A stretch of 63,990 nt of DNA, counting the filler, from Dirinaria sp. TL-2023a (lineage: Eukaryota), in the NCBI GenBank assembly GCA_051941275.1. It is 5 parts of 5 records of this genome, joined end to end, with 100 filler letters (N's around TTAATTAATTAA, not from the genome) between each part and the next. Parts side by side here need not be neighbours in the genome. Positions count along the whole stretch, not along the records: positions 39,574 to 52,617 come from JAVEBF010000717.1; 4 more parts are not named here. One strand, written 5' to 3'. Position numbers and translations under genes: made by a program. The number at the start of each line of letters is the position of its first letter. Within the stretch, counting starts at the first letter, position 1. The notes beneath the pieces are model-generated. The model worked only from the letters and a program-made list of their open reading frames with translations. It was not told the origin of the DNA and ran no database searches. Positions 13,104-52,717 of this stretch are shown here, piece after piece.

Positions 13104-13203
13104 NNNNNNNNNNNNNNNNNNNNNNNNNNNNNNNNNNNNNNNNNNNNTTAATTAATTAANNNNNNNNNNNNNNNNNNNNNNNNNNNNNNNNNNNNNNNNN
13201 NNN
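13104..13203. other. Artificial contig-joining spacer (N44-TTAATTAATTAA-N44)
   Basis: Exactly 100 nt; the 12-mer places stop codons in all six frames; identical at four places. Confidence 0.97.
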
Positions 13204-26300: not shown

Positions 26301-26400
26301 NNNNNNNNNNNNNNNNNNNNNNNNNNNNNNNNNNNNNNNNNNNNTTAATTAATTAANNNNNNNNNNNNNNNNNNNNNNNNNNNNNNNNNNNNNNNNNNNN
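26301..26400. other. Artificial contig-joining spacer
   Basis: N44-TTAATTAATTAA-N44. Confidence 0.97.
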
Positions 26401-39473: not shown

Positions 39474-39573
39474 NNNNNNNNNNNNNNNNNNNNNNNNNNN
39501 NNNNNNNNNNNNNNNNNTTAATTAATTAANNNNNNNNNNNNNNNNNNNNNNNNNNNNNNNNNNNNNNNNNNNN
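39474..39573. other. Artificial contig-joining spacer
   Basis: N44-TTAATTAATTAA-N44. Confidence 0.97.
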
Positions 39574-40810
39574 GCTACGACGGAAATTGAATCTGCCACG
39601 TCGTCGGCGCCGTTTGGAATGCCTTGATAAAAATTCCCGGTTGAGTTATCTGCAGGCTTCATAGTATTGTCGGTGGAGCTGCAGGCAGCAGCCTTAAGGG
39701 TGGGGCGATACCAATAAATGATACGATCGTTCTTGATTTGGCCAGCCAATGACTTAGAGCCAGCCTTATAGGCTGCAATAAACAGTTGGGCCATTTCGAG
39801 CCAACCATCATGGGGCCTGTTGCAACTCGTTAGACAGGATAGCGCAATTTGCGTGGCCCTCACATGTCATTGGTCCACTTCGAATTGCCATCGTCGTGAG
39901 ACGAAGATAAAGGTCCTATATAGTGGGACTCGCCGTAATCATTCCAAGTAATGAGTTCAACGTACTGCGGTGCGTGTTGCAGGATGTGCGTCCAGCGGTT
40001 GTACCAGAGAAGATCCGAAGGAAATACGAAATTCTTACTATAGCTTACTTCCGATCCATAATGGGTCGAGAACCAAGCAGATGCGGGAGCTATGTACGAT
40101 TTGCCATTCAGCGCGCCAGTGTAAGCGCTATCACCTTCTGCAACAGAGACATTAGTTTTAGCTGTCGGAGCCTTGTTGTTTCCATTGTTAGGCCAGGCGA
40201 TCCAGTTCAATCCTCCGTCAACGGCCCCAAGGTTGGAGCATCGGAAGTTCGGGGCCATAAACAGTGGCATTCCGACAGCGGATCGCACAGCACTAACATC
40301 CAATCCATCGCCCCGAATGAGGAGAGAAGAACTTGATCGCTATTGGCGCCAACCTTCAATTGTGCAGGCTGAGTTCCGTACTGTTTGACCTTGGCCCCAA
40401 CCTCCAAAGCCTGCGATGTATTCCACCAATTGAAGTCGAAGAATATAAAAACCTTCATCCCATTCTTCTCCGCAGATTCATATGCGTATTTGAGTTGTTG
40501 GTCGGTAAATTCATTGGTACCGATATTCAACGCGAACGCATCTATCCCAGCTAAACTTGCTCTAATCATGTCATCATCGTATTCAGTGGCGCTCGTTCGG
40601 GTTGATATTACGTCAATCTAGAATCGAATAAATCAATCATGAGCTTTTGGATCAAGTGATCGATAGTTGTATCATGAAGTGGCAGAAGACCATCCTGGCA
40701 GAGGACTGCCTTCGCTGCACGGGAACATGTTCCTGTGGCGGAGCGGCATGTGCAAGAAATAGCAGCGAAAAGATGAAAGAAAGGTAATCAAGTAGAACTC
40801 TTAAATTCAT
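39574..40810 (-). pseudogene. GH71 alpha-1,3-glucanase (mutanase), disrupted; 3' part cut by the contig edge
   Basis: Signal peptide, VFCHFM, GIDAFALNIG, FDFNWW, PASAWFSTHYG.EVSYSKN, ITWNDYGESHYIGP, MPHDGW, YWYRP. 1-nt frameshift in the G4 run (plus 40311-40314); first intron begins AT instead of GT (40672-40671). Confidence 0.85.
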
Positions 40811-42625: not shown

Positions 42626-45600
42626 TCACAGAGAAAAAGGAAGAGCTGGAGCCTGGCTAACTCGTTCCCGCCAATTCCTAAGTCCTTTCAATAAGGTACG
42701 AGAATTGGATTTCACACCCTCCTCTGCATTTTGGTACCTTTTCGTACCCTTAGGCTCGGACTGAAGGATTTCGTACAAGGCTTCAACCTCATCCTGACAG
42801 TGCACTTTCTTATGATCTTCGAGGTGTGGGAGTCGGCGCACATGTCTAGGCCTAATCCACGATGCAGGGAAGCCGTCAAGGCCATCTTGACTATCTTCAG
42901 GTGTGAAAGGTGCAGACATAGGTAGCAGGTGGTCGAATGAGACGTTGGGAAGTAGTCGGATTTCCTCCTGGTCATCGTTTGAACTCGATTGGGCGTTCTC
43001 CCAATCAGACTCCGGGTGCTCAAATGCCGATTCAGCTGTTGCATTACCTCTAGGCGCTCTACGTATTGGAGGATACTGGGTGACCTTGTTCTCGATTTGC
43101 GGCACTTCTCGAATGACTGGCCTTGGCCCAACTTTTCGGCGCTTTCCAGGCCGCTCAGACGCGGATCTTACTGCACGTACTTTGTCATTGTAAAATGGTC
43201 GCTTGCCACTGGCATCCTGGTAATTGGGATTGGGTTCTTCCAACTGCTCTACCCATCTTAGCAGAGTTTGGTCTGGAGTCGTAGGAGGGAAATGGGCGTC
43301 TCGCAGGTGCTTGAACGCGTTGTGCTTCGAGGCATATCTTTTCCCGGCTGAACACTGCTTGCAGTGAGAAATGAATGACTCGGTCAAGGATTGGTCGACA
43401 CATCTCCATACTTGGCGATCCGACATATGAAAGCGGGCGTTATGTTTCTTGGCTGCGTATTCATCGGAACAATCCAAGCTACAGACGGTGCATTTAGCCC
43501 TCACTCGAGGCCGCCTCGCAGCCTTTTTAGGGGCTTCCGAAGGTTGAAGGTTGTTATCAAAATGGTCAACATGATCGGTGTCACCTTGAATCCTAGGAAG
43601 CGCCCCTACGCTACTGGGTTCTGCAGGGGCTGCATGTTGCGGAGGTGCCGCATAAATGGTTGACCAGTCTGCGGTCTTCGAGCCTGGAGCTCCGCTGTTG
43701 CCATTTAGGCCCAAAGGTGGAGTAAGCGGCAATGAAGTATAGTTGGATTGATCTTGTCCCGGTGTTTGTACTGGATCTGGTGTTTTCGTTGAATTGATGT
43801 CCACAGTAGGACGAGTAACGTCCGCGACGTTTGAGTCATGATTTAGGCTCGTATTTCCTTGGTCTAGGCGATGCTCCGGCTTGGAATTCAAATGGTGCGT
43901 CAAATGCCGATTAATTTCGTCCAACGTCTTCGTTTTGAGGCAGTCTGCGATTCTCACTAAGTCACGTCCATAGCGATCAAGTAACTTTGGCAGTTCTTTA
44001 TTTTCGGCATCAGACCAGTACGGCTTCCGTCTGTCTTGAAGAACAAGTTGTCCGTCGCTATGCTCGCTACCTATCGCAAATAGGTTCGATCCTTCGTCAG
44101 CGCTTTGATCCAGAGGTTCAGTAGTTAATGTACTAGCAGCTGATTTGCCTGAAGAATTGGTTGATGTGGCGAAAGCTGGAAATCCAGAGGTAACCTGTTC
44201 AAGTTCCGTGTCGCAGATTGACTGTATATCATTCTGTAAATTTAAGCTAGTCGCAGTAGTAGAGCTCTGCAGTTGTTCATACAAATCTCCTTTGAAATCA
44301 TTTAGGCTGTCGTAGCGTTGCTCATCAATGTTTTCCCTTATATTATCCATACACACGAGCAATGACTGAAAGCCATCCACGTCCTTGTATTGTCTCTCTC
44401 CCTGGCTATCAGAGGAGCTGCCCGCGACAGCCAGCTCGCTACCAATACCAGCTGCCGAACCGTCCAACAGGTTTCGTTTCACATGATCGACAATCTGATG
44501 AAAGGTCTGTTGGGCTGCTTTGCGGCCTTGTTTTGACCATGACTTAGCCATCCTTGAAGATCGTGAGCCTGGGATAGGGTTGTGACCCTCTGATACAGAC
44601 AGATTCCCCAAGCTCCCACTGAGGCTTTCGGGGACTTCAAAGTCTACTGCAGACATGTGGTATCGCTCCGTATGCTTTTTCAGGGCCTCCTTCGACCTGA
44701 AACCTCTTGCAGCAAAGTCACACTGAAGGCAGAAGAACGATCTAACATGGGAGACCTCATGATTATCCCTCTCTTGCAACAATTTGAATGTCTGGGAGCA
44801 ATAGTGAGCTCTGCATGGGAAAGAGAAGCGGGCGATGAAAGCTCTATGGTCGCACTCATCAATGTGGGGTGGTAGTGCGGAGCTATTCATCTTCAGAAGC
44901 CGCTCGGTATATTCACGTAAGTGATGCTCAATCAAGCTCAGATAAGTCTCATCCTGTCGAAGCTGCCACTCTCCTTGGGCCTTTGGACTTTCAAAATCAC
45001 TTCCGCTCTGGGCGAGCTTAGATTTGAATTGCAGCCAAGCAGAGACAAGACTGAACACAGCTGGCCATTGCCGGAGCTTTTCCAGACTTTTTGGTCCTTT
45101 CCCTAATATCGAAAGCGTAATGGAACTGTCAGAGTGACTATTGTAGGCCTTGAGTACTCCGAGAAATCTCTGTAAGGTTCCAATTAATTCTCGACTTCTC
45201 TCGTCCTCAGTGGCTGCGGCTTGAAAATAAGCTACCACGTGTTCGGCCCAAAATTGATGTCCATATGACTGTAGGCCAAAACTTCCCATACTCACAAGCC
45301 GCTCCAGTTCGGCCTCGGTAATAGCACCATCATGGGATGGTACAAATTTCAAGGCTGAGGTTAAGTTGGCAACACAAGAAAAGGCGATGTCGAAATGAGC
45401 TTGTGCTACATCTACAAAAGGTCCGCTCTGCGAATGAAGAAGGTATTCTCTTGCCGAGAAGTGCACAGCCTCGACAAATCCGTTCTTGGTTTTCTCAAGC
45501 AAAGGTGCGCATAGATCTACAATATTCCTGTCCTTGTTCTGGATTCTGGTCTTCTTGTTGAGCTCGATTTGTCCACGCCGTAGTTGAAGACCGTCGGCAA

Positions 45601-47479
45601 TCTCATCGATATTCACGGACCGATAAGCCACACACACCCAGTACAAAACTCTGAAAGCTCGGTCCTTCGCAAGGGGGCTCAAAGTGCGCAATCGATCAAG
45701 GATACGACAGTACGCTTCGCCTAGGCCGTTTGGCAAATTTTCCAAGCTTGACTCGAATTCGGCCTCCGAGGAGCAATCTTCTAACTCAGTCTTGACAAGT
45801 CGGACCCAGAGAAACATACCATCTGCCTTCCCCTGGAGTATACTGGTGGCTCGTTCCCACGTTGTAGTTGGAAAATTTAGAAAATGAGATTGAAGGTCCG
45901 CGATCATGGAAAAAATGTACTTATTGAGACCCTCTGTTGATTGTCCTTTGATTGGGATATGTGTTGAGTGCGTAAGTTCTTTTTGAATATGGGGTTCGTG
46001 TCTGCTGGAGACAAGAAGCTTGCAGTCACTGCTTATAGTCTTTTGGAGGTCTACGAGCGCTTTGAGAACGTCGCTCTGAGGAGTTCGGTCCCACTCATCG
46101 ATGCCGTCGAGAACTATTCGTGTCATTTTGGCTGTTTGCATGATCTCCTTGAGTATCTTCTTTGTATTTGGCGATGAACGCCCAGACCCTTTCTGGAGAA
46201 AAGCTTGATGAATAAGTGGAGCTAAATCGCAGTTCTGCCTCAGAAGTTGGACTGCGAGAGTACGTAACAAGAAAGCCAAAGCGTTTCGGTCCGATAATCT
46301 CTGGCCACAAAAGTAATAAAGCACAGACAGATCTTCACGAGTTCTTGCATTGTCCACAATCATTGAACAGAGAAAGCTCTTTCCTCCCCCGGGTATATTA
46401 GTCATCCAAAGGATGGGCATTTTATCGTCATGGTCCATCCAGGAAATCATTTGGCTTTCAGCGAGGATCCAGTCACAAGTGCCCGGATTTCGGTGATCTG
46501 AAAGTTGATGAAGATATCCTTCTTGGACATCCTCATCCGCAGACAGCCAATCAAACACTTCACGTGTAAGCTGAGCGTTCCTGTTCCTCTCGTAGCTTTC
46601 TTCCTCAAGCTGTCTCTTTTCCCGCTGTCGCTTCATTTCGAGGAAATGTGTGGCTGCAGCTTCTCTATCAACAAGATCGCAGTGCGAAGTCAGTCGTTGA
46701 AGTATCGATTTAAATCGTCGCTCGAAGAGACCCCAGTCAAAAGCGAACCAAACATGCCAGCCTTTACGGCGGAAGATTCGGTACGCGCGTTGGTTGAAGT
46801 CTAAGATGTCACTATATATTAGTCCGAGCACTTGGTGAAAGTCCGGGCTCTCATCAAATGCGGCCTTGAGCTTATCCAGCCGGGGCAACACGTCCGCAAT
46901 ATCACTATATGCTGGGAGTGGGCCAAGTCAGCAAGTGATAGACATGGCGCCGTAGCCTCGTGCTCAGAAGCCAATTCCCTTATTTAACTACATTTTCACG
47001 TCTCCAAAAACAAGTGATCAGCGCCTTCCGTGGTAGATGACTTGCCTTGGAGAATTTTATCCATGACGTTCGAATATTGTCTAGCTAACTGTAGGGTTCG
47101 CCGTTAGTGGCACTGTCGGCGTACACTTAATGGTGGAGAGCGAAAATTACAAGCAGCACCAATTTTATGGGACCCTGTGATGTTTTAGTGGGTAAAGCAC
47201 AACAAATTTAACAGCATTTACCCAAACGAATGCCATAGGCGAAAACCCCTGACAAAAGACTTCGATCACCGGAGCATAGCTTTCCATCGATCGCAGAAAG
47301 GACTCGATACGACGCATGAAACGAAGGTCTCTTCGCTGGCCCTGTTCGAATTCGATCGTCCGGGCCTCGGCCCATAGCTCTTCAAGAGTTGTGTCCAAGA
47401 AGAAGCGACGATCGTCATCATTGAGCGTAGACTGTAATTGATTGATTGCTTTCCCCACTATCCCACGTCCAGTCGCCAT
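42626..47479 (-). CDS. NACHT (NLR-like STAND NTPase) with N-terminal helical domain (DUF7708-like), winged helix and multi-domain C-terminus
   Basis: Exons 47479-47222, 47174-47151 (GPIKLVLL), 47088-47046, 46911-42626. PGTCDWIL, Walker A NIPGGGKS, VLYYFC, Walker B RIVLDGIDE, LLVSSR, KADGMFLWVRLV, LPNGLGEAYCRIL, VHFSAREYL; then C2H2 fingers, SANT-like and other modules. Confidence 0.9.
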
Positions 47480-48427: not shown

Positions 48428-51307
48428 ATGAAAACCTTTGCGAGGGCAATGGAAGCAGGGTACGCAGAAGAATGGTGCTTCGGTATGGTGAGTTACCCAC
48501 TGGGCCATGCCGACATGTATAATAGCGACAAATTCTTGCCCGAGTCGACCTCTTCGGTGCAATGCTGATCTCAGAATCTAGCTCGTAGGCTTCGGAGCTC
48601 GCATGACGGACAACTTCCCAATCAAGAAGACACCAATTGATCTAAAGGTCCACCCAGACTCAGGCGAACTCATAGACGTAGAGGGGAGCTCTATCTTCGG
48701 CACCATTCTTTTTGCGAATCACAAGGTTCTTAGCGTCCTTCAAAGAGAATTGTCTTTGCAAATCTATGCGGACTATGCTAGGTCACTAGAGCTGAGATCA
48801 TCCAATCAACCCTCTAAGCGAAGACAAAACAATGCGACAGACCCAACCAAACCATCTCTAGAATTGAGCATAATCCTCTACGGACGCCCTGCTCTGTTCG
48901 AGGCTGTTGGCCAATTTGCGGCGAGGTGCAACATGTATCTACAGCACCCTAACCACTGCGATCGAAATGTACTGTACATGAATCCACATTGTCTTTCATC
49001 CCCGAAGGAGATAAGGATTATGACCCACGACCTCGACGCTGATCTCGCTGGGTTTGCCAACCAAAACACACAATTTCCTGCAAATCCTATTGACCTCTTC
49101 ACTGACACCAACCACCAAGAGGAGCTTGCAGAGTCGGGAACGCCCTGCGCCTTACGCACGGCTCTATACAAGCATCAAAAGCAGGCTTTGACATTCATGA
49201 TGGATCGGGAAACGGGTTGGTCATTCGATGGACGCCATAGAGATATCTGGAGAGAAGAGAAAGACAGTCAAGGCCGTGCCATATACGTCAATACCATTAC
49301 AGGACACAAGCAACTAAGATCACCAGCGGAATTCCGGGGAGGACTCCTGATTGATGCACCCGGTCTTGGAAAGTCTCTAAGCATCATCGCCCTTATCGCT
49401 ACTGACATGCAAGAACCTGGTGAGCCTAATGAAAAATTGGACACTGCAACTAAGACTTTACTGATAGTTCCAAAATCCTGTAAGTCACCCAACCAACAGT
49501 GTCATGTTCAGGTGCTCAGTCGTAAAAAAGTGATCCAGACCTGGAAAGACGAGCTTCAAAAGTAATAATTCTATTTAGTCCGCTCGAGACTCGACTGAAT
49601 GCTAATTTTTGCCAGACACCTGAAACCGTCCAGTGCAATCACATACGGTGTGTATTATGGCAAAGGTCGAGCGCGCATTTTAGAAAACTTACAGGACTAC
49701 AAACTCGTGATTACGACTTACGCCGTCGTTAGGAAAGATTGGAAATCAAGCAAGGTCAAGTCTGAGCCAAAAGCTCCCAATATCTATACCTTTAGATGGC
49801 GAAGAATAGTCCTAGACGAAGGCAAGTCAGATCCGGTTTTGATTCCAGATCACTCCTCTCATAAAAGAGTGTAGCACACATTATTCGGGAGCCTTCAAGA
49901 TCATTTGCTCAATCTGTCTGTGCTCTTATGGCGCACAGGCGGTGGTGCGTCAGTGGCACACCAATACAGAACAGGCTCATGGATCTCTACAGCCTCTTTA
50001 AATTCCTTCAATGCACCCCTTTTTCGGATCTAAGCGTATTCAACAAATACGTGACGGAGCAGTGGAAGTCACAGTCTGATCCCCGTTGTGTTGCAAGGCT
50101 CAAGAATCTTGTTGGTTGCCTCTCACTCCGAAGACCGAAAACAACCATAAAGTTACATCCACGGATTGACGATACAGTCGAGCTACATTTCAACGACCAC
50201 GAGCGGCAGGACTATCAGCGAATCAAATCTAGCACGCTATCTCGCCTTAATGATGCCGAGAATAGAGTTGATGGCGCAGCCTTCTTCAGTGCCCTGAGGC
50301 GGGTGAACCAACTTCGTTTACTATGCAATCATGGACTCGCGAATTACACCACAGCTGATGACGCTTCGACGGATACTTTGATGGCCAAATCTTTGTGGAA
50401 CGCTGAAGTCGCCCAGTCTCAATTCGATCACCTAGATGCAGTTGGACTTGCACGATGCTCTAGTCCAGCATGCTGCCGAGACCTTAGCTCTGCCCTATCT
50501 AGTGACACTGATCACGACTATGAGGAGGAACCTTACATTGACAAATTGGGGACTCTTTTATGCTTCACTTGTGAACATGAGCGGTCTGGAGCGTCCGATG
50601 GCTTCTTGAAAGTTTGCAATCATTTTCCGCGAGCCTCGTTAGGTGACTCGATTGTCAGCATTGAGAGTGCTCACGGTAGGGTGCATGGGTTTTTCAGCGC
50701 TCAAAGTTTGCATGGCACTACATCCACACAGCCTGTTCCGACAAAAATCCAGCGGGTGATACAAGATTTGGATGAGACACCTGATGATATAAAAAGGTTA
50801 GTGCAATACATCGGTACTCAAGATGAATCTCATTAACATTTCCATAGTGTTGTATTCTCATCCTGGACCAAAACCTTTGACATTCTTCAGCCGCAACTTG
50901 TGTCAAGATCTATTAGATGTGTCAGATTGGATGGGTCTCTCTCCACTACGGCACGAGCCAATGTGCTCAGAGCATTCGGCAACAATTCGGGAATTAAAGT
51001 CCTCCTCGCCACAATTACGTGTGGAGGCGTCGGCCTGGATCTGACAGCAGCTTCAAGAGCGTACATCATGGAGCCTCAATGGAACCCAATGAGCGAATCT
51101 CAAGCTCTGGACAGACTTCACCGACTAGGCCAGGAGAAGGAAGTCAAAACCATCAGATACCTCATGAAAGATTCTTGGGAAGAACAGGTGCTGAAACTTC
51201 AAAAGCGAAAGCAAGAACTTGCCGACCTGACTTTGAATTCCGGCACCATCAACAAAGCAGATGTAACACATGGGAGGCTTCAATACCTAAAGGAGCTTGT
51301 TGGTTAG
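48428..51307 (+). CDS. SNF2-family helicase/ATPase, RAD5/RAD16-like with degenerate RING insert
   Basis: EEWCFGM | intron 48488-48581; LYKHQKQALTFM; GGLLIDAPGLGKS; TLLIVP; WRRIVLDE|AH (GC-AG intron 49822-49874); RWCVSGTPIQN; SVVFSSW; RLDGS; GGVGLDLTAASRAYIMEPQWNP...QALDRLHRLGQ. Start uncertain (48428 or 48449). Confidence 0.9.
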
Positions 51308-52617: not shown

Positions 52618-52717
52618 NNNNNNNNNNNNNNNNNNNNNNNNNNNNNNNNNNNNNNNNNNNNTTAATTAATTAANNNNNNNNNNNNNNNNNNNNNNNNNNN
52701 NNNNNNNNNNNNNNNNN
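52618..52717. other. Artificial contig-joining spacer
   Basis: N44-TTAATTAATTAA-N44. Confidence 0.97.

Follow-up and report, generated by a model that had tools for sequence, protein, structure and literature searches.

A module resembling the N-terminus of fungal Taf12 at the C-terminal end of a NACHT protein from Dirinaria sp. TL-2023a

A NACHT ATPase gene of Dirinaria sp. TL-2023a (assembly GCA_051941275.1), a lichen-forming fungus, raises the question of why a protein built like a NOD-like receptor (NLR) should end in a stretch that resembles the beginning of Taf12, a subunit of TFIID and SAGA. The gene lies on the minus strand of the window, in the part that comes from record JAVEBF010000717.1; the window is the whole stretch of 63,990 nucleotides that was analyzed, which consists of five joined parts of this genome and along which all positions are counted. 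Its main exon, of approximately 4.3 kb, lies in a frame that is open from stop to stop over 1433 codons (42626-46927, minus strand), and this same exon encodes both the NACHT domain and the Taf12-like tail. The initial annotation had compared 65 residues at the end of this gene, assigned to 42660-42862, with the pattern of the N-terminal region of Taf12 in filamentous fungi. These residues are the exact translation of 42665-42859 (minus strand), which the assigned interval encloses with a few bases to spare, and they indeed form the C-terminal end of the NACHT-encoding frame. The Taf12-N-like module as we delimit it occupies 42662-42865 (minus strand), corresponding to residues 1355-1422 of the open reading frame (ORF) and to residues 1458-1525 of the spliced protein of 1536 amino acids (aa). 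It contains an extended segment, L-I-R-P-x-Q-V-x-R-L-P-H-L (x represents any amino acid), which is followed by two long helices.

Similarity between the tail and the Taf12 N-terminus

An exhaustive phmmer search with the last 129 residues against 1.84 billion representative sequences detected 42 proteins at E <= 0.001. Forty of them belong to the same NACHT/Myb/DUF7896 family as the Dirinaria protein and have the tail at their C-terminus. In the other two, P0048 (152 aa, E 3.4e-5) and P0049 (155 aa, E 6e-5), the motif is N-terminal, at residues 15-91, and Q-rich sequence follows it. These sole matches from outside the family both lead to Taf12. A search with P0049 among longer proteins gave 134 matches, many of which are named 'transcription initiation factor TFIID subunit 12' (from Aspergillus, Penicillium, Coccidioides, Uncinocarpus, Emydomyces, and others), and 71 of the 120 matches listed carry the histone fold PF03847. 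A search with P0048 gave 34 matches, including Taf12 of Exophiala and Rhinocladiella. The best match outside the NACHT proteins therefore lies at the N-terminus of Taf12 orthologs.

Direct comparisons pointed to the same region. In P0055, a Taf12 of Aspergillus whose histone fold is at 480-550 and whose N-terminus contains no Pfam family, BLASTP aligned the tail to residues 19-81 with 22 of 63 residues identical and no gaps (42 bits, E 1e-9). When the whole frame was compared with P0066, the same single region was found (E 2e-7). Profile-profile alignment by hhalign of 12 tails with 16 full-length Taf12 sequences gave a probability of 98.05 (E 1.4e-13) over 75 ungapped columns, corresponding to Taf12 positions 14-88. 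A 36-row profile of the entire C-terminal half again had a single region in common with Taf12 (97.5%, E 5e-12), and only this module of approximately 70 residues is common to the NACHT protein and Taf12 in the profile-profile comparison. Hidden Markov models (HMMs) were searched both ways. A model of 46 NLR-family tails matched 153 stored Taf12-type proteins, the best 70 listed scoring approximately 59-65 bits over model positions 2-67, and none of 202 reversed sequences. Conversely, a model of ten Taf12 modules matched the NACHT frame only (E 9.5e-15) among 1648 six-frame ORFs of the window. Because the BLASTP, profile, and HMM statistics are far beyond chance, we regard the similarity as homology: the tail module is almost certainly homologous to the N-terminal module of Taf12, and none of the tests run points against it. 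The Taf12 pattern first proposed for these residues was correct.

The breadth first ascribed to the Taf12 module, namely Pezizomycotina, was borne out in part. The module is found in Taf12 of Eurotiomycetes, and beyond them only a weaker match was detected, to 9ynu_I, a solved TFIID subunit 12 chain of 770 aa. A five-row profile of Taf12 N-terminal fragments matched residues 35-158 of this chain (E 2.3e-5, with heavy Q-rich bias), and the module aligns at approximately 43-105. Taf12 chains of yeast, Komagataella, and human matched the Eurotiomycete Taf12 profile only from position 315 on, i.e., in their C-terminal parts. In sequence searches, neither the tail alone nor the 12-tail profile matched anything in the PDB, a PDB search with P0049 gave no Taf12 chain, and the ESM Atlas gave no usable match to the tail.

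The resemblance might also be an artefact, resulting either from convergence or from a long frame that reads through into the first exon of a neighboring Taf12 gene. A Met residue is located 20 residues ahead of the module, as in Taf12, which would suit such a first exon. However, this Met is not conserved in relatives, and the tail ends 11 residues past the module with an end that is conserved in the family. When a full-length Taf12 HMM was searched against all six-frame ORFs of at least 25 aa in the window, it matched the tail only; the tail is thus not a stray first exon of a neighboring Taf12 gene. In addition, DUF7896 and the tail occur in one protein in 27 of 39 matches, most of which are frame-level calls without a stop between the two, and statistics of the size obtained by BLASTP, hhalign, and HMM searches are hard to reconcile with convergence. 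An artefact of either kind is therefore extremely improbable.

Two further observations were made on the Taf12 side. In three Aspergillus proteins (P0058, P0059, and P0060), the public models join a DASH Spc34 domain (PF08657) to Taf12, so that the module lies at approximately 270-395; these models are probably two neighboring genes merged by annotation. In the NLR family, a short conserved motif, S-F-x-x-L-L-P, precedes the module by approximately 25 residues; in Taf12, it is likewise conserved but follows the module by approximately 35 residues (approximately 119-125 of P0055). We rejected this motif as evidence of homology, since it lies on opposite sides of the module and its match is not significant (16 bits, E 13). 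Judged by sequence, its presence in both families could be due to chance, or it could represent a partner peptide in permuted order.

Gene structure, domains, and relatives

A gene model with four exons (47479-47222, 47174-47151, 47088-47046, and 46911-42626, minus strand) was derived from the sequence and the Teloschistes homolog P0006. It yields 1536 residues with GT-AG, GT-AG, and GC-AG introns, and 87 of its first 125 residues are identical to P0006 without gaps. Frame residues 1140-1433, the part that was queried, are 100% identical to P0002 in NCBI, 'MAG: hypothetical protein Q9191_004972 [Dirinaria sp. TL-2023a]'; the public model of P0002 skips the second and third exons above, which are micro-exons. 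The gene is partly covered by RNA contigs, which originate from three libraries of a single lichen metatranscriptome sample and are 95-99% alike to the gene. Splicing was confirmed by these contigs: one contains the joint 46911>47046, and loose ends at 47088 and 47221 were read as adjoining exons. Among the 40 differences listed between the window and the RNA contigs along 42867-46850 (minus strand), 19 are synonymous and 21 are not, and 23 further differences are unlisted; this split points to moderate constraint between close relatives.

The domains of the protein, all encoded on the minus strand, can be followed from its N-terminus. Exons 1-4 encode a DUF7708-type helical domain (46637-47479), whose part on the big exon matches Pfam DUF7708 at frame residues 6-97 below the cut-off (E 6.3e-4); the domain is full-length in the relative P0047 (Pfam E 8.4e-17). 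It is followed by the NACHT/NPHP3_N NTPase (45899-46483; NPHP3_N at residues 149-309, E 2.8e-32; NACHT at residues 179-343, E 2.2e-9), in whose translation the Walker A (G-G-G-K-S) and Walker B (D-G-I-D-E) motifs are readable. A winged-helix domain lies after the NACHT (45431-45658; GPIID_WHD at residues 424-499, E 0.0021, below cut-off), and a winged-helix entry is found in the precomputed Pfam annotation of all eight NACHT-bearing homologs among ten matches.

The remainder of the protein differs in character. A pair of C2H2 zinc fingers (44528-44740) has invariant Cys/His columns, a weak Pfam C2H2 match around residues 730-763, and a match between the family profile and TFIIIA (E 0.0022). 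Between this pair and the SANT domain is a stretch (44153-44347) that weakly resembles a bromodomain: the family profile matches TAF1 bromodomains in the PDB (E 3.4e-4), and Pfam Bromodomain appears in the relatives P0014 and P0020 at E 4e-4 to 6e-4, below the cut-off, so that the assignment is weak. The SANT/Myb-like domain (43898-44023) matches Myb_DNA-binding at residues 969-1010 (E 0.0038, below cut-off); the same family passes the Pfam cut-off in 18 relatives, and the family profile weakly matches the CoREST SANT domain in the PDB (E 0.005). The DUF7896 zinc-finger region (43274-43417; PF25438 at residues 1171-1218, E 3.2e-10) has invariant Cys/His ligands. Between DUF7896 and the tail is a basic cluster, K-R-R-K (43133-43144), which by its motif is similar to a nuclear localization signal and in which K1332, R1333, and K1335 (numbered as in P0002) hardly vary within the family alignment. 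The motif L-L-P-N-V-S-F-D-H-L-L-P (42920-42955) is located approximately 25 residues ahead of the Taf12-like module; its S, F, D, and L are invariant in the family, with a mean of 2.48 bits per column. Finally, the last 11 residues and the stop codon (42626-42661) form a family-specific end, A-P-x-x-P-F-S-L, which is the conserved extreme C-terminus of family members; these residues have no counterpart in Taf12, and the alignment of those columns is spurious.

No WD40, ankyrin, or TPR repeats were found among Pfam matches at E <= 1 in the 1433-aa frame, and Pfam detected no family in the last 224 residues. The histone fold PF03847 is absent from the frame and from all 39 family matches scanned by Pfam; the protein is therefore not a Taf12. 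The matches to C2H2 fingers, TAF1 bromodomains, and SANT, together with K-R-R-K, make the C-terminal half look like a nuclear protein of the chromatin or transcription type. As far as its sequence can tell, the post-NACHT half looks like a string of such pieces: two C2H2 fingers, a bromodomain-like stretch, SANT/Myb, DUF7896, K-R-R-K, and the Taf12-like tail. Searching the ESM Atlas with the C-terminal half gave leads under 0.8 only, one of which is a DUF7896 cluster automatically named 'Key lime pathogenicity protein family'.

The tail is a constant feature of its family. Residues 1140-1433 matched ten proteins, eight of which (including P0002) contain NACHT and DUF7896 and two of which, of approximately 835 aa, contain DUF7896 only. 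Among the 40 family members detected by phmmer, the tail match ends no more than two residues from the last residue in 38, the others being P0037 (18 residues short) and P0045 (34 residues short). Pfam was run on 39 of the 42 proteins and found DUF7896 in 27, NPHP3_N in 18, and no family in 12 short ones; in every case, the reading frame that encodes DUF7896 ends with the tail. The layout of the tail is also conserved, with L-L-P-x-V-S-F-D-x-L-L-P, a variable linker, the L-I-R-P-x-Q-V-x-R-L-P-H-L motif, two helices, and the A-P-x-x-P-F-S-L end. Members with species names come from Dirinaria sp., Teloschistes flavicans, and Bacidia gigantensis, all of which are lichen-forming Lecanoromycetes. 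Members of 500-1050 aa that lack NACHT (P0008, P0009, P0012, and others) were considered as stand-alone genes and rejected, since most seem to be predictions from a single frame, with a start past an intron or at the edge of a contig; for instance, P0024, P0025, and P0046 begin inside NPHP3_N, and P0027 lies on a 3.6-kb contig.

The neighbors of the NACHT gene are housekeeping genes, including those for a formin, Mak16, an MnmE-type GTPase, a kinase, Vps18, Nop14, and origin recognition complex (ORC). No other NACHT or NB-ARC was detected in the window among the 21 frames scanned, out of 30 of at least 170 aa, and two frames of glycoside hydrolase family 71. Head-to-head with the NACHT gene is a divergent gene for an SNF2-family ATPase (48582-51304, plus strand; SNF2-rel_dom and Helicase_C). 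When JGI metagenome contigs were scanned with the family alignment, six related loci were found, and an orthologous SNF2 gene occupies the same divergent position in all four that include the upstream flank (L002, L003, L004, and L006), the ortholog in L003 being 49% identical. The genes downstream in the window are present in none of the six related loci. In this thin sampling, the arrangement hints at a kept bidirectional pair, and the SNF2 neighbor is possibly a functional partner.

Elsewhere in the window, a glycoside hydrolase family 71 gene (39863-40617, minus strand) is split over two overlapping frames, with an N run just downstream. Eight runs of 44 N occur as pairs approximately 13.2 kb apart (13104-13203, 26301-26400, 39474-39573, and 52618-52717); they are regular masking and not biological.

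Fold, constraint, and possible roles of the tail

The last 91 residues were modeled with AlphaFold2 on a 56-row alignment (mean predicted local distance difference test score 83.7, predicted template modeling score 0.65), and in the resulting model positions 18-21 form a short helix, whereas 29-48 and 54-82 form two long helices that run antiparallel. The module is thus predicted to be a hairpin of two antiparallel helices against which the extended L-I-R-P-x-Q-V-x-R-L-P-H-L segment packs. For this predicted tail, Foldseek found 0 matches in the PDB at E <= 0.001, and the highest Z that VIA-align reached in a comparison with 48,161 chains was 6.2, its matches being generic helical hairpins throughout and none a specific relative.

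With such a generic fold, the captured hairpin might have been re-used as a structural piece that has lost any link to the partner of Taf12, either as an intramolecular lid for autoinhibition or as a dimerization element of an NLR oligomer. The best structural neighbors are unrelated hairpins, some of them dimerization domains, and the lack of a Foldseek match is in line with this idea, as are the family-specific invariant residues that differ from those of Taf12. The conserved S-F-D-x-L-L-P peptide just upstream could even dock on the hairpin. However, both families keep the non-helical L-I-R-x-x-Q-V-x-[RK]-L-P-H-L segment as well as polar positions (R, Q, H, and K), neither of which a mere scaffold needs. 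We consider a purely structural role rather improbable.

Constraint is distributed similarly in the two families. Per-column information content is correlated between the NLR and Taf12 modules (rho 0.57, p 5e-7), and the majority residue is the same at 21 of 68 columns. Within the NLR family, the module has a mean of 2.60 bits per column, compared with 2.60 for DUF7896, 2.58 for SANT, and 0.9-1.6 for the linkers. The divergence between the tail and Taf12 is large, with identities of approximately 30-35%. In a tree of 85 modules, all Taf12 modules are on one side of a branch with an SH-like approximate likelihood ratio test (SH-aLRT) value of 100 and a length of 1.12 changes per column. As this tree is unrooted, contains 68 columns, and includes no identified Taf12 of lichen fungi, it gives no date or direction of transfer; one row, P0034, is also wrongly labeled in it. 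We nevertheless consider it probable that the tail was derived from Taf12 and not the reverse.

For the case as a whole, our slight preference is for a Taf12-derived docking module on a nuclear NACHT co-regulator; for the tail taken by itself, a docking or co-regulator role has a little less than an even chance. The module would have been taken long ago from Taf12 or from a copy of it, and purifying selection would since have acted on those positions that it also constrains in Taf12. Because of this selection, the tail most likely keeps the job of the Taf12 module, which would be to dock to a partner that belongs to TFIID/SAGA or is close to it. As a whole, the NACHT protein would then act as a nuclear co-regulator of chromatin or transcription that is controlled by a nucleotide switch, rather than a classical repeat-based receptor. 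Its NACHT domain would control access to, or oligomerization of, the C-terminal half, the tail would link the protein to the transcription machinery, and the protein may act together with the head-to-head SNF2 ATPase. The signs of nuclear localization and of contact with the basal machinery are hints in the sequence, namely K-R-R-K, SANT, the zinc fingers, and the Taf12-like module. For Taf12 itself, the portion of PMC6220335 considered here describes unassigned density for the N-terminal extensions of Taf4 and Taf12, which may touch DNA.

Several points weigh against a nuclear co-regulator with a docking tail. The bromodomain-like and Myb assignments fall below Pfam cut-offs in the Dirinaria protein, the role of K-R-R-K in nuclear localization is suggested by its motif, and the DUF7708 and NACHT front end, which appears typical of ordinary fungal NLRs, argues for a receptor-type output. 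Within the module, the invariants of the NLR family (C, D-Q, A, and W) differ from those of Taf12 (H/T/Q, W, and M-x-G-M), and the NLR-family module may bind something different or pack on another part of the same protein. Literature searches on the Taf12 N-terminus in Aspergillus and on activator contacts, judged from the search results, did not reveal a paper on the Taf12 N-module; as no partner of it is known, we infer docking from conservation. The RNA contigs leave 42626-42866 uncovered and are hence silent on the tail. The synteny with SNF2 was seen on a small number of related metagenome contigs, two of which, L003 and L004, appear to be identical.

It is also possible, though unlikely, that the tail is an integrated decoy: perhaps with other chromatin-type pieces, it would imitate the targets of a molecule (an effector, a toxin, or a viral protein) directed against TFIID/SAGA. 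Once this molecule had bound to the mimic, the NACHT domain would be set free, and the protein would oligomerize and signal through the N-terminal DUF7708. As in such decoys, the extra domain is homologous to a host protein, here to part of an essential and conserved hub. It is at the C-terminus, where NLR sensors sit, and the DUF7708 and NACHT front end is like that of ordinary fungal NLRs. Candidates for integrated decoys have been put forward among Sordariales NLRs, i.e., a CHK-2-like kinase and C-terminal C2H2 fingers (sections considered of PMC12258605), and genes resembling NLRs show differential expression in lichen mycobionts, according to the portion considered of bioRxiv 10.1101/2024.08.16.608140.

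However, Pfam detects no canonical sensor repeats next to the integrated part, the window frames scanned contain no paired NLR, the head-to-head neighbor being the SNF2 gene, and the NACHT gene sits among housekeeping genes. No effector is known. Few parts of the C-terminal half are as strongly conserved as the module, and such conservation is a poor fit to a fast-evolving bait. Moreover, the long and fully supported branch of the unrooted tree and the low identity to Taf12 would make the tail a poor mimic if a bait must track its target. Less likely again is a NACHT receptor that guards the TFIID/SAGA hub, with a C-terminal half that imitates the Taf12 N-module together with SANT and bromodomain-like readers and that is tripped by a protein of a symbiont partner, a parasite, or a mycovirus.

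Relation to known systems and significance

The NACHT protein and Taf12 share the same stretch of approximately 70 residues without gaps, with the same L-I-R-x-x-Q-V-x-[RK]-L-P-H-L motif and the same conserved columns. In Taf12, the module is within the first approximately 90 residues; a Q-rich linker comes next, and the histone fold PF03847 lies much farther downstream. In the NACHT protein, it is within the last approximately 80 residues, and the histone fold is missing; each family has invariants of its own, and the two are separated by the long branch described above.

The bacterial STAND (signal transduction ATPases with numerous domains) regulators MalT and AfsR consist of an NTPase fused to nucleic-acid-binding or transcription domains, and their nucleotide state gates transcription. 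The Dirinaria protein could be compared with them by analogy in combining a STAND ATPase with transcription-type domains, but the NTPase clade, the DNA-binding domains, and the kingdom are different. In plant NLRs with integrated decoys, a fragment of a host protein is fused to an NLR that keeps its leucine-rich repeats (LRRs) and is usually genetically paired with a helper NLR. A host-protein fragment is likewise found on the NLR studied here; by contrast, it has no repeats, no paired NLR was found in the window frames scanned, and no effector is known.

Among fungi, Sordariales NLRs with non-canonical C-termini (C2H2, SPRY, and CHK-2-like kinase) likewise have borrowed C-terminal domains, including C2H2, and one of these acquired pieces can be traced back to a core gene that is conserved, as here (sections considered of PMC12258605). 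The Sordariales kinase NLRs keep the full tripartite architecture with repeats (PMC12258605, same sections), whereas the Dirinaria family is without repeats. The sections consulted of that paper do not mention a Taf12 piece, SANT, a bromodomain-like stretch, or DUF7896, and the word 'Myb' occurs 0 times in its main text. CIITA and NLRC5 are mammalian NACHT proteins that serve as co-regulators of transcription, and CIITA is a precedent for a NACHT protein working in the nucleus with the basal transcription machinery. According to the portion of PMC3868913 considered here, CIITA recruits TBP, TAF6, and TAF9 and substitutes for TAF1; it contains LRRs and an acidic activation domain and has no obvious structural homology to TAF1. 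The likeness would be a functional analogy, as CIITA and NLRC5 are not related in sequence to the Dirinaria protein outside the NACHT class, whereas the latter physically holds a TAF piece.

A literature search for NACHT and Taf12 together gave only papers that are unrelated by title and abstract. The shared module would connect an immune-receptor-like ATPase with the transcription machinery, a kind of link for which no earlier description is known. A conserved and so far unnamed module is defined at the extreme N-terminus of filamentous-fungal Taf12, and the same module recurs at the C-terminal end of a NACHT ATPase, so that Taf12 and the NLR offer two independent handles for finding its partner. 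The known range of fungal NLRs also gains a repeat-less architecture with a chromatin flavor. If the tail is a decoy, a fungal NLR decoy would for the first time have been traced back to the basal transcription machinery, and the Taf12 N-terminus would be an effector target in lichen symbioses. If the protein is a co-regulator, it would be a fungal counterpart of CIITA-type NLRs.

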